Source of the DNA: Escherichia coli
GTDB taxonomy: Bacteria; Pseudomonadota; Gammaproteobacteria; Enterobacterales; Enterobacteriaceae
Length of the DNA stretch: 64,000 bases
Strand: one strand, 5' to 3'
Assembly (NCBI RefSeq): GCF_036507355.1
Contig: NZ_AP027877.1
The translations under genes and the position numbers were made by a program. Below the pieces are notes generated by a model. It saw only the letters and a program-made list of their open reading frames with translations, did not search any database and was not told where the DNA came from. Positions 3,602 to 44,194 of the stretch are shown one piece after another; positions within the stretch are counted from its first letter, which is position 1, and the number at the start of each line of letters is the position of its first letter.

Positions 3602-3639
3602 GGGGGAACCGCAGAATTCGGAAAAAATCGTACGCTAAG
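3602..3639. repeat. left 38-bp terminal inverted repeat of the transposon
   Basis: GGGGGAACCGCAGAATTCGGAAAAAATCGTACGCTAAG; 35/38 match to the reverse complement of 9204-9241. Confidence 0.85.
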
Positions 3640-3790
3640 CTAACGGTGTTCTCGTGACAGCTCTTTGACTAGGCTTTCTAAGGCCATTCTGATAGCCCTG
3701 ACTTCCTGAAAAGCCATGGCTAAAATTTGTGCGGCTAAAAGGGATAACCGATGGTAAAGTAAGTTATCCCTGTCGAGATACTGAAAAGCG

Positions 3791-5368
3791 TTATCCTCGT
3801 TTTTCCCAAAACTGTTTTGCCAGTTCGCTCAGAGCGCTAGTTAACTGAGCGACAGATTTCGCACTTTGCAAATTATTCTGCCCGGTCTGTACATTGGTAT
3901 CAGCAGCATCGCGTATATTGATAATACTGCGGTTTATGTCTTCACTTACTGCTCCCTGCTGCTCGACCGCAGTCGCTATTTGCGCGTTCATGTCGGTAAT
4001 TTCGTTAACGCGTTGGCCAATTCCATCAAGAGCTGTAGCTGCTTCCTCTGCGTGAGCTACACTCGTGTGCGCTTGCCGACTACTTTGCTCCATGACTGTA
4101 ACAGCGGATTGCGCTCGCTCTTGTAGAGCGCTGATCATGCTTTGAATATCCGTTGTCGATTGCTGTGTGCGAGCAGCAAGACTGCGAACCTCATCGGCGA
4201 CAACAGCAAAACCACGCCCCTGCTCACCAGCACGCGCGGCCTCAATTGCTGCGTTGAGTGCCAACAAATTCGTTTGCTCGGCGATCCCTCGTATAACGTC
4301 AAGAACTTTTGATATCTCGTTACTTTGACCTTCAAGCTCATGAATAACCTGAGTGGCTTGCCTAATTTCACCTTCAAGGGCAGTGATTGACTGGCTTGTG
4401 TGGGCTACCAGACGCTGGCCAGATGCCGTCTCAGTGTCTGCTCTTCCGGCCGCATCTGCAGCATGCTGTGCATTGCTCGCAACCTCTTGAATGCTTGCCA
4501 CCATTTGGTTTACTGCCGTTGCTATTTGATCTGTCTCTGCCTGCTGCTCAACTGTAAGTACATTGCTTGACTCAATATCCTTTAGTAGGCCTCGGGTGTG
4601 TTCGCTAAGCCGATTTGATGCATCACCTATGCGACCTACTATGGCGCCTGTTTCAGCTTGCATCATTCGTAAAGCAAACTCTATTTGGCCAAACTCATCG
4701 GTGCGCCCAGTGTAGAGGGATTGACTTAATGGGTTATTGGAAATATTCTTGGCTCTTTCAACCAGTCTTCCAAGAGGAGAGAGAATAGCCAAAACACTAA
4801 CAGAGCTTAAGCTTCCTGACATTAAAGTGGCTAACAATAAGCTGCTTATTGATGTATCAGTAAGCATGCCGGCAGCCATTGCGCTTGATATAATACTACC
4901 CCATATGAGCAAGAGTATTTTCACGGAAAAGCTAGCAGCCAATTTCGGCCTCGCGGCCTTCCCGCTTCTCAATTGAGCATATAATTTTTCCGCAGCCAAA
5001 ACCTGCTCAGGTTCAGGCTTGGTCCTTACAGACTGGTATTCAACAATCGAACCATTCTTAGCTATTGGCGTTACATAAGCACTTACCCAATAGTGGTCGC
5101 CATTTTTACAGCGATTTTTTACTAGCCCCATCCATGAGCGGCCAGATTTTAATGTACTCCACATATGCTCAAATGCAGCAGGCGGCATATCTGGGTGTCT
5201 TACGATGTTGTGAGGCTGGCCTAATAGTTCTTCCTCAGTGAAACCACTGATTTTAATGAAGTCAGGATTAACGTACGTGATATGGCTTTGAGGGGAGGTA
5301 GTCGAAAGAATATTGGCATCTTTTGGGAGTTCTAAGTTTCGACCCGTCACTGGTAAATTCTGGCGCAT
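3791..5368 (-). CDS. methyl-accepting chemotaxis protein with N-terminal PAS domain (525 aa), transposon cargo
   Basis: PAS-like N-terminus ([10 protein letters not shown]...[12 protein letters not shown]), hydrophobic segment, conserved MCP signalling core ([38 protein letters not shown]). Confidence 0.8.
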
Positions 5369-5677
5369 AAGAACCTCAAGGGTTGGCTGTTTTATTTTAT
5401 TGTTTTCGGCATTAAGCCCAATTTCTTGAGCGTTACGATAAAGCTAGCATGGAAACGATAGGTGCAAGCAAGTTAAGGGTTGCATCGCGCATGTCAATCT
5501 AGGCTATACCCTAACTTGATGTCAGGCAGGGCCGCGCCGCTTCGTCAGAATAGAGTCTGCTTTCCCATTTTTTGACACATGCCCGCGAAGGTTATAGATT
5601 TCAGCCTGACAGAAATGGGCTTTGAGGCACAACGGAACAGAAAGTGCACTTAAGCCGCCTTCAACCAAGGAGACATC
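5369..5677. promoter_or_regulatory. putative res (resolution) site and divergent promoter region between chemoreceptor gene and tnpR
   Basis: Intergenic position typical of res in Tn21/Tn1721-type elements; inverted repeats TGTCAGGC / GCCTGACA near 5520 and 5605. Subsites not mapped. Confidence 0.4.
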
Positions 5678-6238
5678 GTGCAGGGGCACCGCATCGGCTA
5701 CGTCCGGGTCAGCAGCTTTGACCAGAACCCGGAACGCCAGCTGGAACAAACCCAGGTGAGCAAGGTGTTCACCGACAAGGCATCGGGCAAGGACACCCAG
5801 CGCCCCCAGCTCGAAGCGCTGCTGAGCTTCGTCCGCGAAGGCGATACAGTGGTGGTGCACAGCATGGATCGGCTGGCCCGCAACCTCGATGACCTGCGTC
5901 GCTTGGTACAGAAGCTGACTCAGCGCGGCGTGCGCATCGAGTTCCTGAAGGAGGGCCTGGTGTTCACTGGCGAGGACTCGCCGATGGCCAACCTGATGCT
6001 GTCGGTGATGGGGGCCTTCGCTGAGTTCGAGCGCGCCCTGATCCGCGAGCGGCAGCGTGAGGGCATCGCCTTGGCCAAGCAGCGTGGCGCGTACCGGGGC
6101 CGCAAGAAAGCCCTGTCCGATGAGCAGGCTGCTACCCTGCGGCAGCGAGCGACGGCCGGCGAGCCCAAGGCGCAGCTTGCCCGCGAGTTCAACATCAGCC
6201 GGGAAACCCTCTACCAGTACCTCCGCACGGACGACTGA
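5678..6238 (+). CDS. tnpR: serine recombinase, Tn3-family resolvase TnpR (186 aa)
   Basis: Resolvase N-terminal catalytic motif (GYVRVSSFDQNPERQ), C-terminal HTH; close to Tn21/Tn1721 TnpR. Confidence 0.9.
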   Translation: MQGHRIGYVRVSSFDQNPERQLEQTQVSKVFTDKASGKDTQRPQLEALLSFVREGDTVVVHSMDRLARNLDDLRRLVQKLTQRGVRIEFLKEGLVFTGEDSPMANLMLSVMGAFAEFERALIRERQREGIALAKQRGAYRGRKKALSDEQAATLRQRATAGEPKAQLAREFNISRETLYQYLRTDD

Positions 6239-6241
6239 CAC

Positions 6242-9208
6242 ATGCCGCGTCGCTTGATCCTCTCGGCCACGGAGCGGGACACCCTGCTTGCGCTGCCGGA
6301 AAGCCAGGATGACCTGATCCGCTACTACACCTTCAACGACTCCGACCTGTCGCTGATCCGCCAGCGACGCGGCGACGCCAACCGCCTCGGCTTCGCCGTG
6401 CAGCTCTGCCTGCTGCGCTACCCCGGTTACGCGCTGGGAACCGACAGCGAGCTGCCCGAGCCGGTCATCCTGTGGGTGGCGAAGCAAGTCCAGGCCGAGC
6501 CGGCGAGCTGGGCAAAGTACGGCGAGCGCGACGTGACCCGTCGCGAGCATGCCCAGGAACTGCGCACCTACCTGCAACTGGCCCCGTTCGGCCTGTCCGA
6601 CTTCCGCGCCCTGGTGCGCGAGCTAACCGAGCTGGCCCAGCAGACCGACAAAGGCTTGCTGCTGGCCGGTCAGGCCCTGGAGAGCCTACGGCAGAAACGA
6701 CGCATCCTGCCGGCGCTGAGCGTGATTGACCGGGCCTGCTCGGAAGCCATTGCGCGAGCCAATCGGCGGGTCTACCGCGCCCTGGTCGAACCACTCACGG
6801 ACTCGCATCGGGCCAAGCTGGACGAGCTGTTGAAGCTCAAGGCCGGCAGCAGCATCACCTGGTTGACCTGGCTGCGCCAGGCACCGCTGAAACCCAACTC
6901 TCGGCACATGCTGGAACACATCGAGCGGCTGAAGACATTTCAGTTGGTGGACTTGCCCGAAGGCCTGGGCCGGCACATCCACCAGAACCGCCTGCTCAAG
7001 CTGGCCCGCGAGGGTGGGCAGATGACGCCCAAAGACCTCGGTAAGTTCGAGCCGCAGCGCCGCTACGCGACCCTGGCCGCCGTGGTGCTGGAGAGCACCG
7101 CGACCGTGATCGATGAGCTGGTCGATCTGCATGACCGCATCCTGGTCAAGCTGTTCAGCGGCGCGAAGCACAAGCATCAGCAGCAGTTCCAGAAGCAGGG
7201 CAAGGCGATCAACGACAAGGTGCGCCTGTACTCCAGGATCGGCCAGGCGCTGCTGGAAGCGAAGGAAAGCGGCAGCGACCCCTATGCCGCCATCGAGGCG
7301 GTGATTCCCTGGGACGAGTTCACCGAGAGCGTCAGCGAGGCCGAGCTGCTGGCCCGGCCGGAAGGCTTCGACCACCTGCACCTGGTCGGCGAGAACTTCG
7401 CCACCCTGCGCCGTTACACGCCGGCCTTGCTGGAGGTGCTGGAACTGCGCGCCGCGCCGGCCGCGCAAGGCGTGCTGGCAGCCGTGCAGACCCTGCGTGA
7501 GATGAACGCCGACAACCTGCGCAAGGTGCCGGCCGATGCACCCACGGCCTTCATCAAGCCGCGCTGGAAGCCGCTGGTGATCACCCCGGAAGGCCTCGAC
7601 CGGAAATTCTACGAAATCTGCGCCCTGTCCGAGCTGAAGAACGCCCTGCGCTCCGGCGACATCTGGGTCAAGGGCTCGCGGCAGTTCCGCGACTTCGACG
7701 ACTACCTGCTGCCGGCCGAGAAGTTCGCCGCACTCAAGCGCGAGCAGGCCCTGCCCCTGGCGATCAACCCGAACAGCGACCAGTACCTGGAAGAGCGTTT
7801 GCAGCTGCTGGACGAGCAGTTGGCCACCGTCACCCGCCTGGCCAAGGACAACGAGCTGCCCGATGCCATCCTCACCGAGTCAGGGCTGAAAATCACCCCG
7901 CTGGATGCGGCGGTGCCGGATCGGGCGCAGGCGCTGATCGACCAAACCAGCCAGTTACTGCCGCGCATCAAGATCACCGAACTGCTGATGGACGTGGACG
8001 ACTGGACGGGCTTCAGCCGCCACTTCACCCACTTGAAGGACGGGGCCGAGGCCAAAGACAGGACGTTGCTGCTGTCCGCAATCCTCGGTGATGCGATCAA
8101 CCTCGGGCTGACCAAGATGGCCGAGTCGAGCCCCGGCCTGACCTACGCCAAGCTGTCCTGGCTGCAAGCCTGGCACATCCGCGACGAAACCTATTCGGCG
8201 GCCTTGGCCGAGCTGGTCAACCACCAGTATCGCCACGCCTTTGCCGCCCACTGGGGCGACGGCACGACCTCATCCTCCGATGGCCAGCGCTTCCGCGCGG
8301 GTGGCCGGGGCGAGAGCACCGGGCACGTCAACCCGAAGTACGGTAGCGAGCCGGGACGGCTGTTCTATACCCATATCTCCGACCAGTACGCGCCGTTCAG
8401 CACCCGCGTGGTGAATGTCGGCGTCCGCGATTCCACCTATGTGCTCGACGGCCTGCTGTACCACGAGTCCGACCTGCGGATCGAGGAGCACTACACCGAC
8501 ACGGCCGGCTTCACCGATCACGTCTTTGCCCTGATGCACCTGCTAGGCTTCCGCTTCGCGCCGCGCATCCGCGACCTCGGCGAAACCAAGCTGTACGTGC
8601 CGCAGGGCGTGCAAGCCTACCCGACGTTGCGCCCGCTGATCGGCGGCACCCTGAACATCAAGCACGTGCGTGCCCACTGGGACGACATCCTGCGCCTGGC
8701 CAGCTCGATCAAGCAGGGCACCGTCACCGCCTCGCTGATGCTGCGCAAGCTCGGCAGCTACCCGCGCCAGAACGGACTGGCCGTGGCCCTGCGCGAGCTG
8801 GGCCGGATCGAGCGCACGCTGTTCATCCTGGACTGGCTGCAAAGTGTTGAACTGCGCCGCCGCGTGCATGCCGGCCTGAACAAAGGTGAGGCGCGCAACT
8901 CGCTGGCCAGGGCGGTGTTCTTCAACCGCCTTGGGGAAATCAGGGATCGGAGCTTCGAGCAGCAGCGCTACCGGGCCAGCGGCCTCAACCTGGTGACGGC
9001 GGCTATCGTGCTGTGGAACACGGTGTACCTGGAACGCGCCACCCAGGGGTTGGTCGAGGCCGGCAAGCCGGTGGACGGCGAGCTGCTGCAATTCCTGTCG
9101 CCGCTGGGCTGGGAGCACATCAACCTAACCGGCGATTACGTCTGGCGGCAGAGCCGCAGACTGGAAGACGGGAAGTTTCGGCCCTTACGGATGCCCGGAA
9201 AACCTTAG
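6242..9208 (+). CDS. tnpA: Tn3-family transposase TnpA (988 aa)
   Basis: 988-aa ORF, typical Tn3/Tn21 transposase length; 3' end runs into the right inverted repeat, as is usual in this family. Confidence 0.9.
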
Positions 9209-9241
9209 CGTACGATTTTTTCCGAATTCTGCGGGCTCCCC
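9204..9241. repeat. right 38-bp terminal inverted repeat of the transposon
   Basis: CTTAGCGTACGATTTTTTCCGAATTCTGCGGGCTCCCC; reverse complement matches the Tn1721-type IR. Confidence 0.85.
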
Positions 9242-13318: not shown

Positions 13319-14848
13319 ATGGCTCGACTCTTTACCCCTTCAGAATCAAAGTATTACCTGATGGCGCTGGATGCAGGCACCGGAAGTATTCGGGCTGTGA
13401 TATTCGACCTGGAAGGCAATCAAATAGCAGTGGGACAGGCGGAGTGGCGGCATCTGGCAGTACCGGACGTTCCTGGTTCTATGGAATTTGATCTCAACAA
13501 AAACTGGCAACTGGCGTGTGAGTGTATGCGCCAGGCGCTGCACAACGCCGGCATAGCCCCGGAGTATATCGCTGCCGTTTCGGCATGTTCGATGCGTGAA
13601 GGCATTGTTTTATATAACAATGAAGGAACACCGATCTGGGCCTGCGCCAATGTGGATGCCAGAGCGGCGCGCGAAGTTAGCGAACTTAAAGAACTGCACA
13701 ACAATACCTTTGAAAACGAAGTTTATCGCGCGACCGGACAAACGCTGGCTTTAAGTGCCATCCCCAGATTACTTTGGCTGGCCTATATGCTCAGCGGCGA
13801 ACTTGCGGTGGATCCCTCTAACGCTGGCACCACGGGACTTCTTGATCTAACCATCCGTGACTGGAAACCTGCATTGCTGGATATGGCTGGCCTGCGTGCC
13901 GATATTCTTTCTCCTGTCAAAGAAACCGGCACATTGCTGGGCGTGGTAAGTTCACAAGCGGCGGAACTCTGCGGTCTGAAGGCGGGCACTCCGGTGGTCG
14001 TTGGAGGAGGCGACGTGCAGCTTGGTTGCCTGGGGTTAGGCGTTGTGCGTCCGGCACAAACCGCGGTTCTTGGCGGCACATTCTGGCAGCAAGTTGTAAA
14101 TTTAGCCGCGCCGGTGACAGACCCAGAAATGAACGTGCGCGTTAATCCTCATGTTATTCCTGGCATGGTACAAGCTGAATCTATAAGCTTTTTTACCGGA
14201 CTCACCATGCGCTGGTTCCGCGATGCTTTCTGTGCCGAAGAAAAACTGATTGCCGAACGTTTAGGCATCGACACCTATACGCTGCTGGAAGAGATGGCCA
14301 GTCGGGTGCCGCCTGGGTCGTGGGGCGTAATGCCGATCTTCTCCGACAGAATGCGCTTTAAAACCTGGTATCACGCTGCGCCTTCCTTTATTAACTTGTC
14401 CATTGACCCGGATAAATGTAACAAAGCGACATTGTTCCGTGCGCTGGAAGAAAATGCGGCGATTGTATCAGCGTGTAACTTGCAGCAAATTGCTGATTTC
14501 TCGAATATTCATCCTTCATCGTTAGTCTTTGCAGGCGGAGGTTCAAAAGGGAAATTATGGAGTCAAATTCTCGCTGATGTCTCGGGATTACCCGTCAATA
14601 TTCCGGTAGTCAAAGAAGCCACCGCATTAGGATGTGCCATTGCAGCTGGCGTCGGTGCCGGAATTTTTTCATCAATGGCAGAAAACGGAGAACGCCTGGT
14701 TCGCTGGGAACGGACGCACACACCAGACCCAGAAAAGCATGAACTTTATCAGGATTCACGCGATAAGTGGCAGGCAGTTTATCAGGATCAGCTGGGGCTG
14801 GTTGATCATGGACTGACGACGTCGTTATGGAAAGCGCCTGGGTTATAG
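13319..14848 (+). CDS. lsrK: autoinducer-2 kinase LsrK (FGGY carbohydrate kinase), 509 aa here
   Basis: FGGY-kinase N-terminus ([13 protein letters not shown]), lsrRK context; in-frame stop immediately upstream of the ATG at 13319. Shorter than the ~530 aa I recall for K-12. Confidence 0.85.
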
Positions 14849-15060
14849 TTTCATTGACAGCCACATCATGATGACCGTGGCTGTTAGTTTTTGAGTATAG
14901 TTATTCTTATTTCCCTTCTTTTAGAGCTGGCTTGTTAAATGCCAGCTTGCAGATTCATCGTTCCATCACCAGTACTATATTCAAGGGAAAATTGCTATTT
15001 TTCTTGGTGATGCTGCCAACTTACTGATTTAGTGTATGATGGTGTTTTTGAGGTGCTCCA

Positions 15061-15336
15061 GTGGCTTCTGTTTCTATCAGCTGTCCCTCCTGTTCAGCTA
15101 CTGACGGGGTGGTGCGTAACGGCAAAAGCACCGCCGGACATCAGCGCTATCTCTGCTCTCACTGCCGTAAAACATGGCAACTGCAGTTCACTTACACCGC
15201 TTCTCAACCCGGTACGCACCAGAAAATCATTGATATGGCCATGAATGGCGTTGGATGCCGGGCAACAGCCCGCATTATGGGCGTTGGCCTCAACACGATT
15301 TTACGTCACTTAAAAAACTCAGGCCGCAGTCGGTAA
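15061..15336 (+). CDS. insA: IS1 InsA (91 aa)
   Basis: [43 protein letters not shown]... zinc-finger/HTH InsA. Confidence 0.95.
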
Positions 15337-15758
15337 CCTCGCGCATACAGCCGGGCAGTGACGTCATCGTCTGCGCGGAAATGGACGAACAGTGGGGCTA
15401 TGTCGGGGCTAAATCGCGCCAGCGCTGGCTGTTTTACGCGTATGACAGGCTCCGGAAGACGGTTGTTGCGCACGTATTCGGTGAACGCACGATGGCGACG
15501 CTGGGGCGTCTTATGAGCCTGCTGTCACCCTTTGACGTGGTGATATGGATGACGGATGGCTGGCCGCTGTATGAATCCCGCCTGAAGGGAAAGCTGCACG
15601 TAATCAGCAAGCGATATACGCAGCGAATTGAGCGGCATAACCTGAATCTGAGGCAGCACCTGGCACGGCTGGGACGGAAGTCGCTGTCGTTCTCAAAATC
15701 GGTGGAGCTGCATGACAAAGTCATCGGGCATTATCTGAACATAAAACACTATCAATAA
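15255..15758 (+). CDS. insB: IS1 InsB reading frame (167 aa; the transposase InsAB' is made by -1 frameshift at the A-run near 15310)
   Basis: Canonical InsB sequence; TTAAAAAAC slippery run in the insA/insB overlap. Confidence 0.9.
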
Positions 15759-15773
15759 GTTGGAGTCATTACC

Positions 15774-17755
15774 GGAATTTCCTCGGAACGGGCGAAGCTT
15801 TCCGCTATATCTATATCGGTGATGCTGGCGATGGTGAACTTAATGTCTCGAGTGAAGGCAAAGTAGATTCGGGAATTATCACTGCGGGGATGAAAGAAAC
15901 AGGCACAGGCAACATTACTGTTAAGGATAAGAACTCCGTTATCACTAATCTCGGAACTAATCTTGGTTATGACGGCCACGGCAAAATGAATATCAGTAAT
16001 GAGGGGCTTGTTGTCAGCAACGGAGGAAGCTCTCTCGGTTATGGAGAAACCGGCGTCGGGAAGGTTAGCATCACCACGGGGGGGATATGGGAGGTCAATA
16101 AGAATGTCTATACCACCATTGGTGTTGCGGGCGTCGGAAACCTCAATATTAGCGATGGCGGTAAGTTCGTATCGCAAAATATTACTTTTTTGGGCGATAA
16201 AGCAAGCGGTATCGGCACTCTGAACCTGATGGATGCGACATCATCGTTCGATACTGTGGGTATCAATGTCGGTAATTTTGGTAGCGGTATCGTAAATGTC
16301 AGTAATGGTGCCACCCTTAATTCAACGGGCTATGGATTTATCGGAGGAAATACCTCCGGTAAGGGGATAGTTAATATTTCAACGGATAGTCTCTGGAATT
16401 TAAAGACATCATCTACTAACGCCCAATTGCTACAGGTCGGTGTATTAGGCACGGGTGAACTGAATATTACCACCGGAGGTATAGTTAAAGCGCGTGATAC
16501 ACAGATAGCTCTCAATGACAAAAGTAAGGGCGACGTGAGGGTGGATGGGCAGAACTCTCTTCTTGAAACATTCAATATGTACGTAGGGACATCTGGTACG
16601 GGTACGTTAACCCTGACGAATAGCGGCACGCTGAATGTCGAAGGTGGAGAAGTTTACTTAGGTGTTTTTGAACCTGCTGTAGGAACGCTAAACATTGGTG
16701 CAGCTCACGGTGAGGCGGCGGCAGATGCCGGGTATATAACCAACGCGACGAAAGTAGAGTTTGGTTCTGGCGAAGGTGTTTTTGTCTTTAATCATACTAA
16801 TAACAGTGATGCCGGCTACCAGGTCGATATGCTGATTACAGGTGACGATAAAGACGGAAAAGTGATCCATGATGCAGGCCATACGGTGTTCAATGCAGGG
16901 AATACTTATAGCGGTAAAACGCTGGTCAATGACGGCATCCTGACCATTGCGTCTCATACGGCAGATGGGGTAACGGGCATGGGTTCGAGTGAAGTAACCA
17001 TTGCAAGCCCCGGTACGCTCGACATTCTCGCATCAACGAACAGTGCAGGAGATTACACGCTGACCAATGCGCTCAAAGGCGATGGCTTGATGCGAGTGCA
17101 GCTGTCATCCTCCGACAAGATGTTTGGCTTTACCCATGCAACAGGGACTGAATTCGCCGGTGTTGCCCAAGTGAAAGACAGTACCTTCACTCTGGAACGC
17201 GACAACACCGCTGCGCTTACTCACGCGATGTTGCAGTCTGACAGTGAAAATACCACATCGGTAAAAGTTGGAGAGCAATCCATTGGTGGACTGGCCATGA
17301 ATGGAGGTACCCTCATTTTCGATATCCAGGTCTTTCAGTGGTTGATTGGCGCAACGGATGGCCATGCAAAAAACTTCTCCGTATTTATTCAGGCTGGCGG
17401 CAGTTATCGACTCACGCCATTTTACGACATCATTTCAGCATTTCCGGTATTGGGTGGCGCGGGAATACACATCAGCGATCTCAAACTGGCAATGGGGCTT
17501 AACGCATCCAAAGGCAAAAAAACGGCAATCGATAAAATTTATCCGCGACATTTTTTGGCGACAGCAAAGGTGCTGAGATTCCCGGAAGTGCAGATGCATG
17601 AAATCCTGAGTGACTTTGCCAGAATGATTCCGGCAGCACTGGATAACGTGAAGACTTCATTACCGACAGATTTTCCAGAGAACGTGGTGACGGCAGTTGA
17701 AACCAATGTGTTGAGGTTGCACGGTCGGTTAAGCCGAGAATACGGTATTAAGTAA
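15774..17755 (+). pseudogene. chimeric remnant: AIDA-like autotransporter passenger fragment (ydeK/yneO-like, 5' end removed by IS1, no beta-barrel domain) fused in frame to the 3' end of hipA
   Basis: N-terminal ~480 codons are Gly/Thr/Asn/Ser-rich beta-helix repeats; the last ~142 codons are the HipA C-terminus. Confidence 0.7.
17327..17755 (+). pseudogene. hipA: hipA 3' fragment (C-terminal ~142 codons of the HipA kinase toxin, including the catalytic loop); hipB and the hipA 5' part are absent
   Basis: QVFQWLIGATDGHAKNFSVFIQAGGSYRLTPFYDIISAFPVLGG...RLHGRLSREYGIK matches the HipA C-terminus; the N-terminal domain and ATP-binding region are not upstream. Confidence 0.75.
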
Positions 17756-18008
17756 GAGTAAGATATGGGGTTTGGTCGTTGTTAATGAGCAGGACAATCA
17801 TGACCGCCAACGACTAGATTCTTCCTTGGTTTATGTTGGTGCGCATAATGTATATTATGTTAAATCACCTACTGTGGTAAATAAGTTCATATGACACTCC
17901 CACTAACTGATAAATCAATACGTTAGGATTTCTGATCTCCCTCTCGTTTCTTGCATTAGGTACAGAGTACATTCTCTTCATATCCATGATAATTTTGAGG
18001 TAAATATT

Positions 18009-18720
18009 GTGTATTCACTAAAGCAGTTGGTTATCTCAGGCCGTAAAAGGCGATGGATCCTGATGGACTTGGAAACCTCTCTGCCGTTGCTGTATCCCCT
18101 TAGGTACCATATTGACCATTTGGCTTTCCGCTCATTGTCCACACAGTCAGCTTCACTTCAATCTGTGAAGTTTTTTTACGAATTCTGGAGGCAAAAGTAT
18201 GGTGTCTCGTTTTGCTACAGCTTCTATTCATCTGACCACAATCCAGACATTGCTGTCGGTGAAATGCCCGCATTTTGGATGTATCTAGAAAATGGCCACA
18301 ACGTCCAGTCAAATGTGTTGTCTTTAACGAGAGTCACAAAAGCCAATAGCTTAACTCATACAGTTAGAGTTCGTGCTGTGATCCATTTCATTTCTTTTTT
18401 GATTAACACCTACATATCACCTGCATACCGGGATGACTCTCCCAAAGCATTATCACTTTTGGCTTCGCGTTTACACACCCGTTTACAGCTTTGCCGGGAG
18501 AATTATCGAACGCTTACATCAAACAAATTTTCGCAACATAGTCACAGCAGCCAAGGATTTCAGAGTTTGTCTGGGGCAATGGTGCTCAGCCTGTATGGAA
18601 TAATAACCCCCTCTTCTGCCCAAAAGCATAACCCGCTAAATCCTTTCCCTTCCGGGCATCTTCAGTTCCGCAATTTTTTGATTATTCGTCTGTTGTTAAA
18701 TTATGGTTTACGAACAGGTG
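18009..18720 (+). pseudogene. tyrosine recombinase / phage-integrase-family gene, N-terminal fragment truncated by IS1
   Basis: AT-rich ORF with an integrase-like N-terminal motif (LQSVKFFYEFW) and the start of a box-I-like motif (LLLNYGLRTGG) just before the IS1 boundary. Weak assignment, no search run. Confidence 0.35.
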
Positions 18721-18775
18721 GGTGATGCTGCCAACTTACTGATTTAGTGTATGATGGTGTTTTTGAGGTGCTCCA

Positions 18776-19051
18776 GTGGCTTCTGTTTCTATCAGCTGTC
18801 CCTCCTGTTCAGCTACTGACGGGGTGGTGCGTAACGGCAAAAGCACCGCCGGACATCAGCGCTATCTCTGCTCTCACTGCCGTAAAACATGGCAACTGCA
18901 GTTCACTTACACCGCTTCTCAACCCGGTACGCACCAGAAAATCATTGATATGGTCATGAATGGCGTTGGATGCCGGGCAACAGCCCGCATTATGGGCGTT
19001 GGCCTCAACACGATTTTACGTCACTTAAAAAACTCAGGCCGCAGTCGGTAA
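18776..19051 (+). CDS. insA: IS1 InsA (91 aa)
   Basis: Identical to copy-1 InsA except one residue (MVMNG vs MAMNG). Confidence 0.95.
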
Positions 19052-19473
19052 CCTCGCGCATACAGCCGGGCAGTGACGTCATCGTCTGCGCGGAAATGGA
19101 CGAACAGTGGGGCTATGTCGGGGCTAAATCGCGCCAGCGCTGGCTGTTTTACGCGTATGACAGGCTCCGGAAGACGGTTGTTGCGCACGTATTCGGTGAA
19201 CGCACGATGGCGACGCTGGGGCATCTTATGAGCCTGCTGTCACCCTTTGACGTGGTGATATGGATGACGGATGGCTGGCCGCTGTATGAATCCCGCCTGA
19301 AGGGAAAGCTGCACGTAATCAGCAAGCGATATACGCAGCGAATTGAGCGGCATAACCTGAATCTGAGGCAGCACCTGGCACGGCTGGGACGGAAGTCGCT
19401 GTCGTTCTCAAAATCGGTGGAGCTGCATGACAAAGTCATCGGGCATTATCTGAACATAAAACACTATCAATAA
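18970..19473 (+). CDS. insB: IS1 InsB reading frame (167 aa)
   Basis: Identical to copy-1 InsB except one residue (LGHLMS vs LGRLMS). Confidence 0.9.
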
Positions 19474-19488
19474 GTTGGAGTCATTACC

Positions 19489-20134
19489 TGCTTGCCATAG
19501 CACCGTTGCCAACGCAGCTGTCGCACTGGGTGCGACTCGGGTAATTTATCCGGAAAACCAGAAACAGGTTTTATTGCCTGTCACGAATAATGATCCTGCC
19601 AGTGTCTATCTCATTCAGTCATGGATAGAAAATGCAGGTGACCAAAAAGACACCCAGTTTGTCATTACCCCACCGCTTTTTTCCATGCAAGGTAAAAAAG
19701 AGAATACGCTGCGGATAATCAACGCCACTAATCATCAGTTACCAGGCGACCGTGAAAGCCTGTTCTGGGTGAATGTTAAAGCTATTCCTGCTATGGAAAA
19801 AGACCAGAAGAATGAGAATACATTACAGCTGGCAATTATTAGCCGCATAAAAATGTTTTATCGCCCCACGAACCTGGCAATGGCACCTGAAGAAGCGCAT
19901 GCAATGCTTCGGTTTCGTCGCAGCGGTAGCAAACTCACTCTTATTAATCCAACGCCCTACTTCATTACCGTAACAAATATGAAAGCAGGAAATAGCAATC
20001 TCCCAAACACCATGGTGCCGCCAAAAGGTGAAGTGTCGGTGGATATCCCGCATGCTGCCACCGGGGATATCAGTTTTCAGACGATCAATGATTACGGCGC
20101 ATTAACTCCGCGTATTAAGGCAACCATGCAGTAA
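19489..20134 (+). pseudogene. periplasmic fimbrial chaperone (PapD/FimC family), 5' end and signal-peptide region removed by IS1
   Basis: Reading frame opens directly at the IS1 end with a mature chaperone N-terminus (..RVIYPENQKQ..) and immunoglobulin-like chaperone domains; no own start codon or promoter. Confidence 0.75.
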
Positions 20135-30890: not shown

Positions 30891-32048
30891 ATGCACGTTA
30901 CAGCCAAGCCCTCCAGTTTTCAATGTAATCTCAAATGTGATTACTGTTTTTACCTTGAAAAAGAGTCGCAGTTTACTCATGAAAAATGGATGGATGACAG
31001 CACTCTGAAAGAGTTCATCAAACAATATATCGCAGCGTCTGGCAATCAGGTCTATTTTACCTGGCAAGGCGGTGAACCCACTCTGGCTGGCCTGGATTTT
31101 TTCCGTAAAGTTATTCACTATCAACAACGCTATGCAGGCCAAAAACGTATTTTTAATGCATTACAAACGAATGGCATTTTATTGAATAATGAATGGTGTG
31201 CCTTTCTCAAAGAACATGAGTTTCTGGTTGGTATCTCGATCGATGGACCCCAGGAGCTACATGACCGTTACAGACGCAGTAATTCAGGTAATGGTACTTT
31301 TGCAAAAGTGATAGCAGCCATCGAGCGTCTGAAATCATATCAAGTAGAGTTTAATACGTTAACCGTCATTAATAACGTTAATGTCCATTACCCTCTTGAG
31401 GTTTATCATTTTTTAAAATCTATCGGCAGTAAACATATGCAATTTATCGAATTGCTAGAAACCGGGACGCCGAATATTGATTTCAGTGGTCATAGTGAGA
31501 ACACATTCCGTATCATTGATTTTTCTGTGCCTCCCACGGCTTATGGCAATTTTATGTCAACCATTTTTATGCAATGGGTTAAAAACGATGTGGGTGAAGT
31601 TTTCATCCGTCAGTTTGAAAGCTTTGTCAGCCGTTTTTTGGGGAATGGGCATACCAGTTGTATTTTCCAGGAGTCCTGCAAGGATAATCTGGTTGTTGAA
31701 AGTAATGGAGACATTTACGAATGCGACCATTTTGTCTATCCACAGTACAAAATTGGAAACATTAATAAATCTGAACTCAAAACGATGAACAGTGTACAAC
31801 TGACAGCGCAAAAAAAACGGATTTCAGCGAAATGTCTGAAATGTGCATATAAACCTATCTGCAATGGCGGTTGTCCTAAGCATCGTATTACTAAAGTAAA
31901 CAATGAGACTGTTTCTTATTTTTGCGAAGGTTATAAAATCCTTTTTTCAACCATGGTACCTTATATGAACGCCATGGTAGAGTTAGCTAAGAACAGAGTA
32001 CCGCTTTACCACATTATGGATGTTGCAAAACAAATGGAGAATAATTAA
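30891..32048 (+). CDS. ydeM: radical-SAM anaerobic sulfatase-maturating enzyme homologue YdeM
   Basis: CxxxCxxC radical-SAM motif (CNLKCDYC) near the N-terminus, C-terminal Cys cluster; ATG at 30891 preferred over the upstream TTG. Confidence 0.85.
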
Positions 32049-32338
32049 TAACACGCCCTCTTAGCTCCAGTCTTAGCCTCCGTCTTATGACCTTAACAAA
32101 GCACCCGACATAAATTCCTGTCGGGTTTGTCGTCATCATCATCTTCCCTTGCGAAAATCCTGGCATACGTGGTATGCGTCAGGGCATTAGCAATACCCTT
32201 GATTATCAATAGCATAACCATAACCACTGAAAATTAAAAATTTCTATATATTTCATATTGTTAAATGATACTTAAATAAATTTCATCAGTAAATCATTGC
32301 CATAGATAATCATTGGATGGCACAATCAATTTTCGCTA

Positions 32339-34024
32339 ATGATAACCATTCCCATTACGTTTTGTATGTTGATAGCAAAGTATCTCTGTCTGCTGAAGCC
32401 CTTTTGGCTGCGTAAGAATAATAAAACTTCAGTGTTGTTAATCATTATTATCCTCGCCATGATCCTTGGCGTGGTTAAAATTCAGGTCTGGTTAAACGAC
32501 TGGAATAATGATTTTTTCAATGCGCTAAGCCAGAAAGAAACCGATAAGCTTTGGCAGCTTGTCCTTTGGTTCCCTGCCCTGCTGGGGATCTTTGTATTAA
32601 TATCCGTAAACAAAACATGGTTAATTAAACTGCTGACTATTCGCTGGCGCGAATGGTTAACAGATTACTACCTTAATCGCTGGTTTGCAGATAAAAACTA
32701 CTACTTCACGCAGATCTACGGCGAGCATAAAAATACAGATAACCCTGACCAACGTATCGCTGAAGACATTCTCTTACTGATCAGCAAAACGCTCAGTCTT
32801 TCATTTGGCTTCATCCAGTCACTTAGCATGCTGATCACCTTTACCGTTATTCTTTGGCAAAGCGCGGGTACGCTCTCATTCACTGTTGGTGGAACAGAAT
32901 GGAATATCCAGGGGTATATGGTCTATACCGTCGTGCTCATTGTGATCGGTGGAACTTTATTTACCCATAAGGTGGGTAAACGTATTCGTCCGCTTAATGT
33001 GGAAAAACAACGTAGCGAAGCGACATTTCGAACTAATCTTGTGCAGCATAATAAACAGGCAGAACTGATTGCGCTAAGCAATGCTGAGTCTCTACAACGC
33101 CAGGAGTTGAGCGACAATTTTCACACCATTAAAGAGAACTGGCATCGTTTAATGAATCGTCAGCGGTGGCTTGATTACTGGCAGAATATTTATTCGCGTT
33201 CGCTTAGCGTTCTTCCGTACTTTCTGTTATTGCCGCAGTTTATTAGCGGACAGATCAATCTGGGCGGACTTATGAAATCGCGCCAGGCATTTATGCTGGT
33301 ATCGAACAATTTAAGCTGGTTTATTTATAAATATGATGAAATTGCTGAACTGGCTGCGGTTATCGATCGCTTGTATGAGTTCCATCAACTCACCGAACAG
33401 CGCCCTACGAATAAGCCTAAAAATTGCCAACATGCGGTACAAGTGGCTGACGCGAGTATTCGTACCCCTGATAATAAGATCATATTAGAGAACCTGAACT
33501 TTCATGTTCCGCCAGGCAAATGGCTATTACTGAAAGGTTACTCTGGTGCGGGAAAAACCACACTGCTTAAAACATTATCCCACTGCTGGCCGTGGTTTAA
33601 AGGTGATATTTCTTCTCCTGCCGACAGTTGGTATGTGTCACAAACACCGTTAATCAAAACCGGCTTACTGAAAGAGATTATTTGTAAAGCACTTCCTCTG
33701 CCCGTAGACGATAAATCGTTGAGCGAAATACTGCATCAGGTTGGTCTGGGGAAATTGGCTGCGCGTATTCATGACCACGATCGCTGGGGAGATATTCTTT
33801 CCAGCGGCGAAAAACAACGTATCGCCCTGGCACGATTAATTTTACGACGTCCGAAATGGATATTTCTTGACGAAACTACCTCTCATCTTGAGGAACAAGA
33901 GGCTATCCGCTTACTGCGTTTAGTGCGTGAAAAACTACCCACAAGCGGCGTCATTATGGTTACACATCAACCCGGTGTCTGGAACCTGGCCGATGATATT
34001 TGTGACATTAGCGCGGTTTTATAA
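32339..34024 (+). CDS. yddA: fused ABC transporter permease/ATP-binding protein YddA (561 aa)
   Basis: N-terminal TM domain, C-terminal ABC ATPase (Walker A GYSGAGKTT, signature LSSGEKQR). Confidence 0.9.
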   Translation: MITIPITFCMLIAKYLCLLKPFWLRKNNKTSVLLIIIILAMILGVVKIQVWLNDWNNDFFNALSQKETDKLWQLVLWFPALLGIFVLISVNKTWLIKLLTIRWREWLTDYYLNRWFADKNYYFTQIYGEHKNTDNPDQRIAEDILLLISKTLSLSFGFIQSLSMLITFTVILWQSAGTLSFTVGGTEWNIQGYMVYTVVLIVIGGTLFTHKVGKRIRPLNVEKQRSEATFRTNLVQHNKQAELIALSNAESLQRQELSDNFHTIKENWHRLMNRQRWLDYWQNIYSRSLSVLPYFLLLPQFISGQINLGGLMKSRQAFMLVSNNLSWFIYKYDEIAELAAVIDRLYEFHQLTEQRPTNKPKNCQHAVQVADASIRTPDNKIILENLNFHVPPGKWLLLKGYSGAGKTTLLKTLSHCWPWFKGDISSPADSWYVSQTPLIKTGLLKEIICKALPLPVDDKSLSEILHQVGLGKLAARIHDHDRWGDILSSGEKQRIALARLILRRPKWIFLDETTSHLEEQEAIRLLRLVREKLPTSGVIMVTHQPGVWNLADDICDISAVL

Positions 34025-34061
34025 AAACAATAAAAGCCCTGCTGTACGGAGATATAAATAA

Positions 34062-36434
34062 ATGAAGCGAGTTCTTATTCCTGGCGTCATTTTATGTGGC
34101 GCTGATGTGGCGCAGGCCGTCGATGACAAAAACATGTACATGCATTTTTTTGAAGAGATGACGGTCTATGCTCCTGTCCCTGTACCCGTAAACGGCAACA
34201 CGCATTACACCAGTGAAAGCATCGAGCGTTTACCGACCGGGAATGGCAATATCAGCGATCTGCTGAGAACCAACCCTGCGGTACGCATGGATTCAACGCA
34301 AAGTACCTCGTTGAACCAGGGAGATATTCGCCCGGAGAAAATCTCTATTCACGGTGCGTCGCCCTACCAGAATGCCTATTTGATTGATGGTATTAGTGCC
34401 ACTAATAACCTGAACCCAGCGAATGAGTCCGATGCCAGTAGTGCAACCAATATTAGCGGGATGTCACAGGGGTATTATCTTGATGTCAGCTTACTGGACA
34501 ATGTGACGCTTTATGACAGTTTTGTGCCGGTTGAATTCGGTCGCTTCAATGGCGGGGTAATTGATGCAAAGATCAAACGCTTCAACGCTGATGATAGCAG
34601 CGTGAAACTGGGTTATCGCACTACGCGTTCGGACTGGTTAACATCGCATATCGATGAGAATAACAAGAGCGCATTTAATCAAGGTTCTTCAGGAAGTACT
34701 TATTACTCTCCAGATTTTAAAAAGAACTTTTATACCTTGTCGTTTAATCAGGAACTCGCTGATAACTTTGGCGTTACCGCCGGTTTATCGCGCCGCCAGT
34801 CTGATATCACCCGTGCGGATTATGTTTCGAATGACGGCATTGTCGCCGGTCGGGCACAGTATAAAAACGTTATCGATACTGCATTGAGCAAATTTACCTG
34901 GTTTGCCAGCGACCGCTTTACCCACGATTTAACCTTAAAATATACCGGCTCCAGCCGTGATTATAATACCAGCACCTTCCCGCAGTCTGATCGCGAAATG
35001 GGTAATAAATCCTATGGTCTGGCATGGGATATGGATACGCAGCTCGCATGGGCCAAACTACGTACCACCGTTGGTTGGGATCATATTAGTGATTATACCC
35101 GTCACGATCATGACATCTGGTACACCGAACTTTCATGTACATATGGTGATATTACAGGGCGTTGCACCCGTGGCGGATTAGGACACATTTCCCAGGCTGT
35201 AGATAATTACACCTTCAAAACACGCCTGGACTGGCAAAAATTCGCCGTGGGTAATGTTTCGCATCAACCCTACTTCGGCGCGGAATACATCTATTCCGAT
35301 GCATGGACTGAACGCCATAACCAGTCTGAATCCTATGTGATTAATGCTGCCGGAAAGAAAACTAACCATACCATTTACCATAAAGGTAAAGGCAGCCTGG
35401 GAATTGACAACTACACACTGTATATGGCGGATCGCATTAGCTGGCGTAATGTGTCATTAATGCCCGGCGTGCGGTATGACTATGACAACTATCTGTCAAA
35501 CCACAATATCTCCCCGCGCTTTATGACGGAATGGGATATTTTTGCTGATCAAACCTCAATGATTACCGCAGGTTATAACCGTTACTATGGTGGGAATATT
35601 CTTGATATGGGATTACGTGATATCCGCAATAGCTGGACGGAATCGGTATCAGGCAATAAAACCCTGACGCGTTATCAGGATTTGAAAACGCCTTATAACG
35701 ATGAACTGGCAATGGGATTGCAGCAAAAAATCGGTAAGAACGTTATTGCGCGCGCAAACTATGTTTACCGTGAAGCGCATGATCAAATCAGCAAAAGCAG
35801 TCGTACCGACAGCGCGACTAAAACCACCATTACTGAATATAACAACGATGGCAAAACCAAAACGCATTCGTTCAACCTCAGTTTTGAGCTGGCCGAACCC
35901 CTGCATATCCGCCAGGTAGATATTAACCCACAAATTGTCTTTAGCTATATCAAGAGCAAGGGCAACTTGTCGTTAAACAATGGTTATGAGGAGAGCAATA
36001 CCGGTGATAATCAGGTGGTTTATAACGGTAATCTTGTCTCTTACGATAGCGTTCCAGTGGCAGATTTTAATAACCCATTAAAGATCTCCTTAAACATGGA
36101 TTTCACGCATCAACCGAGCGGGTTGGTGTGGGCGAATACGCTGGCCTGGCAAGAAGCGCGTAAAGCTCGCATTATCCTTGGTAAGACAAATGCGCAATAC
36201 ATCAGCGAATATTCAGATTACAAGCAGTATGTTGACGAAAAACTGGATAGCAGCCTGACCTGGGACACCCGCTTGTCCTGGACGCCACAATTTCTGAAAC
36301 AACAAAACCTGACGATCAGTGCCGATATTCTCAATGTACTGGATAGCAAAACCGCTGTTGATACAACGAATACCGGTGTGGCGACCTACGCCAGTGGCCG
36401 TACTTTCTGGCTTGATGTCAGCATGAAATTTTAA
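34062..36434 (+). CDS. yddB: TonB-dependent-receptor-like outer-membrane protein YddB (790 aa)
   Basis: 790-aa beta-rich ORF with a C-terminal aromatic residue (..WLDVSMKF). Confidence 0.85.
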   Translation: MKRVLIPGVILCGADVAQAVDDKNMYMHFFEEMTVYAPVPVPVNGNTHYTSESIERLPTGNGNISDLLRTNPAVRMDSTQSTSLNQGDIRPEKISIHGASPYQNAYLIDGISATNNLNPANESDASSATNISGMSQGYYLDVSLLDNVTLYDSFVPVEFGRFNGGVIDAKIKRFNADDSSVKLGYRTTRSDWLTSHIDENNKSAFNQGSSGSTYYSPDFKKNFYTLSFNQELADNFGVTAGLSRRQSDITRADYVSNDGIVAGRAQYKNVIDTALSKFTWFASDRFTHDLTLKYTGSSRDYNTSTFPQSDREMGNKSYGLAWDMDTQLAWAKLRTTVGWDHISDYTRHDHDIWYTELSCTYGDITGRCTRGGLGHISQAVDNYTFKTRLDWQKFAVGNVSHQPYFGAEYIYSDAWTERHNQSESYVINAAGKKTNHTIYHKGKGSLGIDNYTLYMADRISWRNVSLMPGVRYDYDNYLSNHNISPRFMTEWDIFADQTSMITAGYNRYYGGNILDMGLRDIRNSWTESVSGNKTLTRYQDLKTPYNDELAMGLQQKIGKNVIARANYVYREAHDQISKSSRTDSATKTTITEYNNDGKTKTHSFNLSFELAEPLHIRQVDINPQIVFSYIKSKGNLSLNNGYEESNTGDNQVVYNGNLVSYDSVPVADFNNPLKISLNMDFTHQPSGLVWANTLAWQEARKARIILGKTNAQYISEYSDYKQYVDEKLDSSLTWDTRLSWTPQFLKQQNLTISADILNVLDSKTAVDTTNTGVATYASGRTFWLDVSMKF

Positions 36435-36478
36435 TAGTTCGGATTTTACTTAACCGGGTAAATTCGGCCGGTTTTCGC

Positions 36479-39274: not shown

Positions 39275-39280
39275 TAACAG

Positions 39281-39310
39281 CCCCGTCAACACATCGTTGG
39301 CGGGGATTTT
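39281..39310 (+). terminator. rho-independent terminator after pqqL
   Basis: CCCCGTCAAC-acatc-GTTGGCGGGG (10-bp stem with one G-U) followed by ATTTTA. Confidence 0.6.
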
Positions 39311-39536
39311 AGCAATATTCGCTATTTTTATGTAATAATTTTATAAATGCGTTCAAAATAATAACCAAGTACTAATAGTGATATTTTAAGGTCTGATTTT
39401 TACGTGATAATTCAGGAGGCGCAGAAAGCGCATAAAAATAACAACATAAAACACCTTGCCACCACCCAAGAATTCTCTATTGCATTGTTTTTTAATGGAA
39501 AAATATTATTCCAACAACATCTCACGATAAATAACA

Positions 39537-39556
39537 TTAGGATTTTGTTATTTAAA
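39537..39556 (+). promoter_or_regulatory. GAD box (GadE/RcsB site) in the gadB promoter
   Basis: TTAGGATTTTGTTATTTAAA, ~80 bp upstream of the gadB start. Confidence 0.65.
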
Positions 39557-39635
39557 CCAGAGTCCTTTGCACTTGCTTACTTTATCGATAAATCCTACTT
39601 TTTTAATGCGATCCAATCATTTTAAGGAGTTTAAA

Positions 39636-41036
39636 ATGGATAAGAAGCAAGTAACGGATTTAAGGTCGGAACTACTCGATTCACGTTTTGGTGCGAAGTC
39701 TATTTCCACTATCGCAGAATCAAAACGTTTTCCGCTGCACGAAATGCGCGACGATGTCGCATTTCAGATTATCAATGATGAATTATATCTTGATGGCAAC
39801 GCTCGTCAGAACTTGGCCACTTTCTGCCAGACCTGGGACGACGAAAACGTCCACAAGTTGATGGATTTATCCATTAACAAAAACTGGATCGACAAAGAAG
39901 AATATCCGCAATCTGCAGCCATCGACCTGCGTTGCGTAAATATGGTTGCCGATCTGTGGCATGCGCCTGCGCCGAAAAATGGTCAGGCCGTTGGCACCAA
40001 CACCATTGGTTCTTCCGAGGCCTGTATGCTCGGCGGGATGGCGATGAAATGGCGTTGGCGCAAGCGTATGGAAGCTGCAGGCAAACCAACGAATAAACCA
40101 AACCTGGTGTGCGGTCCGGTGCAAATCTGCTGGCATAAATTCGCCCGCTACTGGGATGTGGAGCTGCGTGAGATCCCTATGCGCTCCGGTCAGTTGTTTA
40201 TGGATCCGAAACGCATGATTGAAGCCTGCGACGAAAATACCATCGGCGTGGTGCCGACTTTCGGCGTGACCTACACCGGTAACTATGAGTTCCCGCAACC
40301 GCTGCACGATGCGCTGGATAAATTCCAGGCCGACACCGGTATCGACATCGACATGCACATCGACGCCGCCAGCGGTGGCTTCCTGGCACCGTTCGTCGCC
40401 CCGGATATCGTCTGGGACTTCCGCCTGCCGCGTGTGAAATCGATCAGTGCTTCAGGCCATAAATTCGGTCTGGCTCCGCTGGGCTGCGGCTGGGTTATCT
40501 GGCGTGATGAAGAAGCGCTGCCGCAGGAACTGGTGTTCAACGTTGACTACCTCGGTGGTCAGATTGGTACTTTCGCCATCAACTTCTCCCGCCCGGCGGG
40601 TCAGGTAATTGCACAGTACTATGAATTCCTGCGCCTCGGTCGTGAAGGCTATACCAAAGTACAGAACGCCTCTTACCAGGTTGCCGCTTATCTGGCGGAT
40701 GAAATCGCCAAACTGGGGCCGTATGAGTTCATCTGTACCGGTCGCCCGGACGAAGGCATTCCGGCGGTTTGCTTCAAACTCAAAGATGGTGAAGATCCGG
40801 GATACACCCTGTATGACCTCTCTGAACGTCTGCGTCTGCGCGGCTGGCAGGTTCCGGCCTTCACTCTCGGCGGTGAAGCCACCGACATCGTGGTGATGCG
40901 CATTATGTGTCGTCGCGGCTTCGAAATGGACTTTGCTGAACTGTTGCTGGAAGACTACAAAGCCTCCCTGAAATATCTCAGCGATCACCCGAAACTGCAG
41001 GGTATTGCCCAACAGAACAGCTTTAAACATACCTGA
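39636..41036 (+). CDS. gadB: glutamate decarboxylase beta (466 aa)
   Basis: [37 protein letters not shown]...; PLP-lysine region [10 protein letters not shown]; followed by gadC. Confidence 0.95.
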
Positions 41037-41191
41037 TAACGTTTAACGGTAACGGTGTCCCGAAACGAACCCGTTTCGGGACAATTTCCAAAGTCTGTTC
41101 ACTGGCATTAGCAACGGAAAATATTGTTCTGAATACGCTTCAGAACAAAACAGGTGCGGTTCCGACAGGAATACCGTTTTAGGGGGATAAT

Positions 41192-42727: not shown

Positions 42728-42752
42728 CTATGTCTGAATGGTTATAAGATAA

Positions 42753-42781
42753 GGGAGCGATAATTCATCGCTCCCTTTTTC
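42753..42781 (+). terminator. rho-independent terminator of gadBC
   Basis: GGGAGCGA-taattca-TCGCTCCC followed by TTTTT. Confidence 0.75.
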
Positions 42782-42857
42782 GTGCTTGCTGTCGTATTGA
42801 CTTAATCGGGATAAGTACGAGAATGAGCGCACATCTGTTTACCGGAAACCAGCACAT

Positions 42858-44177: not shown

Positions 44178-44194
44178 ACTCCCATTTTTACTTT

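Follow-up and report, generated by a model that had tools for sequence, protein, structure and literature searches.

Two IS1 elements between lsrK and a fimbrial operon

The window, by which we mean the whole 64,000-nucleotide stretch of DNA that was analysed, belongs to an Escherichia coli chromosome (locus-tag prefix VEE46, 4,643,937 bp). It contains a decayed stretch, flanked by lsrK and a ydeQRS-type fimbrial operon, that harbors two complete 768-bp IS1 elements in direct orientation, copy A at 15006-15773 and copy B at 18721-19488; these and all other features described below lie on the plus strand. The two elements start 3,715 bp apart and enclose a segment of 2,947 bp. The identity between them ends precisely at the IS termini, with an extension of 0 bp on either side, and a search of the window for other IS1 copies or fragments found none.

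In copy A, insA occupies 15061-15336 (91 aa, with Ala60) and the insB ORF occupies 15255-15758 (167 aa, with Arg85), the A6C frameshift motif being at 15312-15318. The corresponding features of copy B are insA at 18776-19051 (91 aa, Val60), the insB ORF at 18970-19473 (167 aa, His85; product BED22427.1) and the motif at 19027-19033. In both copies the motif AAAAAAC is found at IS position 307, and a conceptual -1 frameshift fusion of insA and insB' gives an InsAB' protein of 232 aa. Imperfect terminal inverted repeats of approximately 23 bp (GGTGATGCTGCCAACTTACTGAT/GGTAATGACTCCAACTTATTGAT) are present in both, and the Pfam domains Zn_ribbon_InsA, HTH_Tnp_IS1 and DDE_Tnp_IS1 are matched by the two alleles at E-values between 1e-19 and 1e-78. 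Judged by length, ends, ORFs, frameshift motif and domains, both copies are assigned to IS1 proper.

The IS1 of E. coli K-12 (the IS1A/IS1E "consensus" type; Umeda & Ohtsubo 1991, cited through PMC12428005) has the same 768 bp, inverted repeats, insA, A6C motif and insB'. Compared with IS1A/E/H/I of K-12, copy A differs at two bases, carrying G444 (Arg65 in InsB, which is Ser in K-12) and G486, and copy B differs at four, with T234 and A503 in addition. Several IS1 alleles coexist on the K-12 chromosome, where four types separated by 2 to 73 differences have been described (PMC12428005). With respect to the widespread plasmid and chromosomal variant that NCBI designates "IS1-like element IS1A family," copy A shows no difference and copy B shows two mismatches. 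The name IS1R of plasmid R100 was considered for copy A and dropped, as the lone IS1 found in the first 50 kb of NC_002134.1 differs from it at seven positions.

The left flank of copy A (14849-15005) is intergenic DNA that follows lsrK; its last 9 bp are ATTTTTCTT, and it corresponds to the sister-strain contig L023 up to position 11687. To its right, copy A adjoins an internal fragment of an ECSE_1600-type autotransporter gene (15774-17324); a stretch of 1,382 bp (L023 11688-13069), comprising upstream sequence and 5' coding sequence, has been deleted beside the element. The fragment is fused in frame to a C-terminal remnant of hipA (17325-17755). The junction between 17324 and 17325 is a private 2,205-bp deletion without microhomology, and the fused ORF of 621 aa, BED22426.1, is unique, with HipA_C at residues 476-582. 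The N-terminal portion of a site-specific integrase gene carried by an island (18009-18720) follows, cut by copy B at approximately codon 219 of 446; an intact counterpart of this gene is present in CFSAN061762 (L014 9303-10643). The right flank of copy B is a fimbrial chaperone gene that lacks its 5' end (19489-20134) and whose 219-aa product, WP_338388367.1, is found on one contig only; the usher is BED22429.1. The sequences that are gone between the flanks of copy B are the remainder of the island, an HTH remnant, a fimA-like gene and the 5' end of the chaperone gene.

Target-site duplications of 8-9 bp were sought at both copies and found at neither, and the right side of copy A has no 9 bp matching ATTTTTCTT. 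Each copy adjoins a deletion; neither this nor the missing duplications had been noted in the initial annotation. Among the controls for this test, the IS1 in L001 and IS1D/E/H/I of K-12 all displayed duplications of 8-9 bp, and four of the eight IS1 copies in K-12 are likewise without one. In view of these four copies, a missing duplication does not exclude membership in IS1, and at this locus the adjacent deletions account for it. Adjacent deletions are classical behavior of IS1, and both copies resemble them: the element is still there, one breakpoint coincides exactly with its end, and no target duplication is left. For copy B, however, recombination between two former IS1 copies would leave the same scar.

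Differences between the two copies and the distribution of their alleles

An exact, ungapped comparison of the two 768-bp elements revealed exactly two mismatches (99.74% identity), so that the copies are not identical, and the two nucleotide differences reported in the initial annotation can be placed at IS positions 234 and 503. At position 234, C in copy A (15239) is replaced by T in copy B (18954), which changes insA codon 60 from GCC to GTC and results in A60V in InsA and InsAB', within HTH_Tnp_IS1. At position 503, G in copy A (15508) is replaced by A in copy B (19223), which changes insB codon 85 from CGT to CAT and results in R85H in InsB, equivalent to R150H in InsAB', within DDE_Tnp_IS1. 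The Ala/Val and Arg/His substitutions proposed earlier for InsA and InsB are thus confirmed by codon comparison. Relative to the common IS1 sequence, both changes in copy B are GC-to-AT transitions, and both leave the reading frames open. As a weak proxy for their effect, the Pfam score for HTH_Tnp_IS1 falls from 98.4 to 94.6 bits with Val60 and that for DDE_Tnp_IS1 from 260.7 to 259.4 bits with His85. The base calls at the four variant positions (15239, 15508, 18954 and 19223) all come from one assembly.

The allele of copy A (C234/G503) is widespread. Along the whole 768 bp it shows 100.0% identity to IS1 on many plasmids of E. coli and Salmonella, and its exact proteins, the canonical InsA with Ala60 and InsB with Arg85, each occur on at least 1000 contigs. 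The haplotype of copy B (T234/A503) is rare: among 5,426 E. coli genomes and 72,556 plasmids, its best match was 99.7% with two mismatches, and the combination of T234 and A503 was absent. The exact InsA protein with Val60 was found on only 13 contigs, all of them with other IS1 backgrounds, several different ones, and the exact InsB protein with His85 only in the source genome and on one unrelated metagenome contig. As lineage markers, the Val60 and His85 proteins of other genomes are uninformative, all being on other IS1 backgrounds.

Within the source genome, an InsB identical to BED22427.1 of copy B is annotated again as BED22538.1, approximately 111 genes away; it is the identity of the His85 protein that ties this second locus to copy B. 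The presence of this InsB at two loci of one genome implies that copy B marks a variant IS1 line rather than a chance error. It is also the only hint that the allele of copy B may itself have transposed. For the common allele, the recent arrival of copy A described below would show that it is active in the source strain.

Presence of the two copies in sister strains

Close relatives of the source strain were found through exact-protein look-ups, and their draft assemblies display 0-1 SNP in 4-13 kb of flank (99.99-100% flank identity). As short-read contigs stop at the repeat, the evidence for copy B in these sister strains consists of its two junctions. The contig L023 (SRR17480487), to which six others are similar, shows 100% identity to the window across 12,341 bp and terminates 28 bp inside the left end of copy B. 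On the other side, L025 begins 77 bp and L026 28 bp inside the right end of copy B, and both continue at 99.993-100% identity. The left junction is therefore present in L023 and the right junction in L025 and L026, which are independent assemblies. At the site of copy A, L022, L023 and L024 are uninterrupted, with the 1,382 bp intact and no insertion. The presence of both copy B junctions in relatives whose copy A site is intact indicates that copy B is older and common to the sister strains and that copy A is new and private to the source genome.

This presence and absence decides in favor of separate insertion events, one of the two readings that the initial annotation had offered for the distinct alleles. 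Its further argument, that the differences make a collapsed-repeat artifact less likely, is weak on the SNPs alone; copy B is now backed by independent assemblies, and the junctions of copy A are known from one assembly only.

When the A-B structure was sought in the E. coli genome collection, no record displayed it, and the best flank identity was approximately 99.2%, so that the insertions are not datable from that collection. An IS1 near lsrK in GPEC1405 and 14 other genomes, considered as the same insertion, is located 280 bp to the right and is flanked by a 9-bp duplication of its own, and thus represents an independent event.

Origin of the IS1 pair

Our results make it very probable that IS1 inserted at this locus twice, independently and at different times, from different donor alleles, and that the copies now form direct repeats 3,715 bp apart. 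Copy B would have come first, between what are now the truncated island integrase gene and the truncated fimbrial chaperone gene. It would derive from a variant IS1 line of the lineage rather than from a lone mutant that arose in place, as at least R150H is shared with another IS1 of the genome. Copy A, derived from a donor of the common allele, would be a very recent arrival that replaced the 1,382 bp that the sister strains still keep. On the basis of known IS1 behavior, we suppose a two-step route in which each element inserted with the usual duplication of 8-9 bp and one side was then lost through an IS1-mediated adjacent deletion, that is, intramolecular transposition starting at one end of the element; for copy B, recombination between two IS1 copies would be an alternative route. 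A single IS1 event that accounts for copy A together with the 1,382-bp and 2,205-bp deletions was also considered and rejected, since no standard intramolecular outcome (deletion or inversion) gives the arrangement.

Between IS1 alleles only a few bases apart, mobility can vary by a factor of more than 1000, and the donor type of a new insertion can be read from its allele (PMC12428005). The IS1 transposase acts preferentially in cis (PMC12903888). Given this cis-preference, a new insertion would be expected to bear the allele of its donor, in which case copy A would not be derived from copy B.

The initial annotation had left open that the two copies diverged after a duplication, one having been made from the other within the locus and both SNPs having arisen later in place. 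The copies are indeed 99.74% identical, in the same orientation and 3.7 kb apart, and both changes belong to the commonest class of spontaneous mutation, GC-to-AT transitions. Nevertheless, copy A is missing in relatives with 0 SNPs in 12,341 bp of flank, a distance at which the expected number of differences in 768 bp does not exceed 0.19 and the probability of two or more is at most about 0.015; by sequence comparison, copy A is thus unlikely to be a recent copy of copy B. In addition, another IS1 of the genome shares G503A, which is therefore not a private mutation that arose in place. According to established mechanics, intramolecular replicative transposition yields a deletion or an inversion, so that starting from copy B it would not produce another copy in direct orientation while preserving the DNA in between. 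We therefore consider divergence after duplication very unlikely. Recombination with other IS1 copies could have written the SNP pattern whatever the original alleles and even from a shared origin, with no transposition needed. Further IS1 copies exist in the genome, His85 being present in at least one, and the occurrence of Val60 on several IS1 backgrounds elsewhere fits recurrent mutation or exchange. We found no direct sign of a conversion tract, however, and both SNPs are on one copy; gene conversion is an unlikely explanation, and it would leave the main result unaffected, since presence and absence in the relatives already give two insertions.

Errors of sequencing or polishing would make the two differences base-call errors in truly identical repeats. 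The variant calls do come from one assembly, polishing errs in repeats, and the exact haplotype of copy B was found nowhere else in the genomes and plasmids searched. This explanation is quite improbable, as the same His85 InsB is encoded at two loci (BED22427.1 and BED22538.1) and both differences are clean substitutions in frames that stay open. Furthermore, mis-polishing normally homogenizes repeats and would have made the copies more alike, the opposite of what is observed. The architecture, two complete direct IS1 elements around a short segment of 2,947 bp, also recalls Tn9, and it could be supposed that a composite transposon consisting of IS1, 2.9 kb of cargo and IS1 inserted as one unit. 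In contrast to Tn9-type elements, the unit here has no flanking duplication, with ATTTTTCTT on the left and TGCTTGCCA on the right, and the two insertions occurred at different times, copy B being alone in the sister strains. The cargo is pseudogene debris, composed of gene fragments only, and the DNA between the copies is colinear with the ancestral chromosomal sequence of the same locus. The 4,483-bp block was found in 0 of 20,395 records, the single match with at least 80% coverage consisting of eight scattered pieces. A composite transposon is thus extremely improbable, and the A-B pair arose in place.

Two independent insertions of different age, our preferred reading, are known biology and ordinary housekeeping of bacterial genomes, and nothing here alters the knowledge of IS1. 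In practice this is of modest value. The two SNPs confirm that the repeats were resolved individually by the assembler, and combined with the sister-strain comparison they provide a small worked example of how IS insertions can be dated and assigned to donor alleles. The data also raise the possibility, a tentative one, that copy B marks a lineage-specific IS1 subfamily (InsAB' A60V plus R150H) that can still transpose beside the common allele, which would make the strain a natural two-allele system with insertions traceable to donor type. If so, the strength of the cis-preference of the IS1 transposase could be tested outside K-12.

Mobile-element events alone set the source strain apart from its near-identical relatives: the new IS1 with its deletion, a Tn1722-like transposon newly inserted in lsrD, and the 2.2-kb deletion. 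The closest relative has no SNPs with respect to the source strain in more than 12 kb, and zero SNPs beside several rearrangements illustrate how structural change can outrun point mutation.

Two IS1 alleles in one chromosome

Our exact ungapped comparison clearly demonstrates that the two complete, plus-strand IS1 elements, copy A (15006-15773) and copy B (18721-19488), whose start positions lie 3,715 bp apart, differ at two nucleotides over 768 bp. At IS position 234, a C in copy A (15239) corresponds to a T in copy B (18954), changing GCC to GTC (InsA A60V), and at IS position 503, a G (15508) corresponds to an A (19223), changing CGT to CAT (InsB R85H, or R150H in the InsAB' transposase). 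The initial annotation had claimed two differences resulting in InsA A/V and InsB R/H substitutions, and had specified in advance this pairwise alignment of the two 768-bp elements; the copies are indeed nonidentical, and the claim was correct to the base. Similarity between the two ends precisely at the IS termini, both retain the terminal inverted repeats and the A6C frameshift motif, and no third IS1 copy or IS1 fragment was found within the 64-kb window. Base calls at the variant sites of both copies, as well as the copy A junctions, derive from one assembly. The coexistence of several IS1 alleles within a single chromosome has been on record for K-12 since 1991, and our finding represents textbook IS biology that was already known.

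Copy A is the common IS1 sequence: many plasmids of E. coli and Salmonella carry IS1 with 100.0% identity to it, and its InsA and InsB proteins each occur on at least 1,000 contigs. It is 2 bases apart from K-12 IS1A/E/H/I (positions 444 and 486), 9 bases from IS1B/C and from IS1D, and 73 bases from IS1F. Assignment to IS1R was rejected, as the single IS1 detected within the first 50 kb of plasmid R100 differs from copy A at 7 positions. Copy B is rare, and is the derived form because its closest matches among the 72,556 plasmids and 5,426 complete E. coli genomes searched (99.7% at best) are of the copy A type, V60 and H85 are rare, and both substitutions shift away from the Pfam family consensus. 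InsA V60 was found on 13 contigs, all with another IS1 background, and InsB H85 was confined to a single 4,643,937-bp E. coli genome and one gut metagenome contig, which is unrelated and has a different background. The changes in copy B lower the Pfam scores of HTH_Tnp_IS1 and DDE_Tnp_IS1 by 3.8 and 1.3 bits, respectively.

Junctions and relative ages of the insertions

No 8- to 9-bp target duplication was present at copy A (left 9 bp, ATTTTTCTT; right 9 bp, GGAATTTCC) or copy B (left, GAACAGGTG; right, TGCTTGCCA), nor did cross-combinations of these flanks match. The same test detected 8- to 9-bp duplications at the IS1 of strain GPEC1405 and at K-12 IS1D/E/H/I, and none at K-12 IS1A/B/C/F. 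Compared with IS-free references, 1,382 bp is missing beside copy A, drawn from the spacer between lsrK and the autotransporter gene and from the 5' part of that gene. The left flank of copy B is the first integrase gene, cut at approximately codon 219 of 446, of an island found downstream of hipA in certain strains; the right flank lies inside a fimbrial chaperone gene, which lacks its 5' end, and the remaining island, an HTH remnant, and a fimA-like gene are missing. The simplest reading is that each IS1 would have inserted normally, with a later adjacent deletion from one of its own ends. Adjacent deletion is classical IS1 behavior. At copy B, the scar would look no different had two earlier IS1 copies recombined with each other.

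Exact look-up of the 509-amino-acid LsrK protein identified ten contigs of close relatives, all ten of which share the in-frame loss of 63 bp from lsrK (13319-14848) seen in this lineage. The deletion point lies near 13775-13782, with an 8-bp repeat as its boundary, and the protein is thereby shortened from 530 residues. Right-junction contigs were found with the usher protein (BED22429.1, at 20176). Among these sister-strain draft contigs, L023 (SRR17480487; six further contigs are similar) matches the window at 100% identity across 12,341 aligned bases and ends 28 bp inside the left inverted repeat of copy B, with the same junction, and L024 ends 6 bp short of that junction. L025 and L026 begin 77 and 28 bp inside the right end of copy B, and beyond it are 99.993 to 100% identical to the window. 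The copy A site is uninterrupted in L022, L023, and L024, where the 1,382 bp missing from the window is present (L023 11688-13069). As relatives share the copy B junctions yet run through the copy A site, copy B is an older insertion, common to the clade, and copy A a new one private to this genome. Absence of copy A in the relatives cannot, on these alignments, be a secondary loss, because they keep the DNA deleted beside it. This supports separate insertion events, one of the two options raised in the initial annotation. Among the 5,426 complete RefSeq genomes, none is closer than approximately 99.2% over a 20-kb core stretch (30000-50000), several draft or short-read assemblies are essentially identical to the window, and the lineage is poorly represented among the complete genomes of this collection.

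Origin of the copy A-copy B pair

The pair resembles a Tn9-type composite transposon but did not move as a unit: an outer duplication is absent, the segment between the copies runs colinear with the ancestral chromosome, copy B stands alone in relatives, and the block spanning both copies occurs in no other record of the searched collections. Divergence after duplication is disfavored, as at most 0.19 differences in 768 bp would be expected if copy A had been copied from copy B after the split from L023, with a probability of two or more of at most 0.015 (approximately 0.002 using the point estimate from other relatives). Moreover, the H85 sequence of the copy B InsB (BED22427.1) is annotated again in the same genome as BED22538.1, known from the annotated protein and located approximately 111 coding genes further on, well past the window end. 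At least two IS1 copies on this chromosome thus carry G503A, which counts against a mutation arising only in place and against random base-call error, making an assembly or base-call artifact unlikely.

Experiments in K-12 indicate that the IS1 transposase acts mainly on its own encoding copy, that the allele at a new insertion tells the donor type, and that IS1 alleles only 9 bases apart can differ more than 1,000-fold in mobility (PMC12428005, PMC12903888). On the basis of the donor-type and own-copy results and the low probability of two differences, copy A would derive not from copy B but from another site in the genome where the donor carries the common allele. We only tentatively raise the possibility that the copy B allele is a still-active, lineage-specific IS1 line; if so, the strain would be a natural two-allele system in which donors could be traced.

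Neighboring rearrangements

A 5,640-bp Tn3-family transposon of the Tn1722/TnAs1 type (3602-9241) is inserted in lsrD, carrying a PAS-MCP gene (3791-5368, minus strand), tnpR (5678-6238), and tnpA (6242-9208, 988 residues), with 38-bp inverted repeats and a 5-bp duplication, AAACA. Because many plasmids carry copies with 100% identity to it and all sister strains lack it, it is a recent private insertion, which inactivates the AI-2 importer.

In this clade, hipA forms an in-frame fusion with an ECSE_1600-type autotransporter gene (window 15890-17755; L022/L023 12061-17256) and hipB is lost; the relatives' open reading frame encodes 1,731 residues with ESPR, Couple_hipA, and HipA_C domains. The window harbors a private in-frame 2,205-bp deletion within this fusion, between 17324 and 17325 (L023 14621-16825), with zero microhomology and no IS end at the junction; we found no standard IS1 event that would produce it. 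The resulting 621-amino-acid open reading frame (15890-17755; BED22426.1, VEE46_21940) owes its existence solely to the window-private deletion. Fusion points lie elsewhere in XJ34, O157:H7, and other E. coli, and the locus has therefore decayed repeatedly.

Directly downstream of hipA (window, approximately 17866; L022, 17367 onward; L014, the CFSAN061762 locus, 9303 onward), integrase-bearing islands vary by strain. The window and CFSAN061762 share an island type with two adjacent site-specific integrases and a 788-amino-acid protein, L022 has an unrelated type, and XJ34 has none; the site resembles an integration hot spot. IS1 seems to be present in the lsrK-autotransporter region of at least 15 other complete E. 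coli genomes, and in GPEC1405, the one checked, the element (L001 3787-4554) is 280 bp rightward of the copy A site and has its own 9-bp duplication, CTAACACTC. The spacer thus seems to be a recurrent IS1 target.
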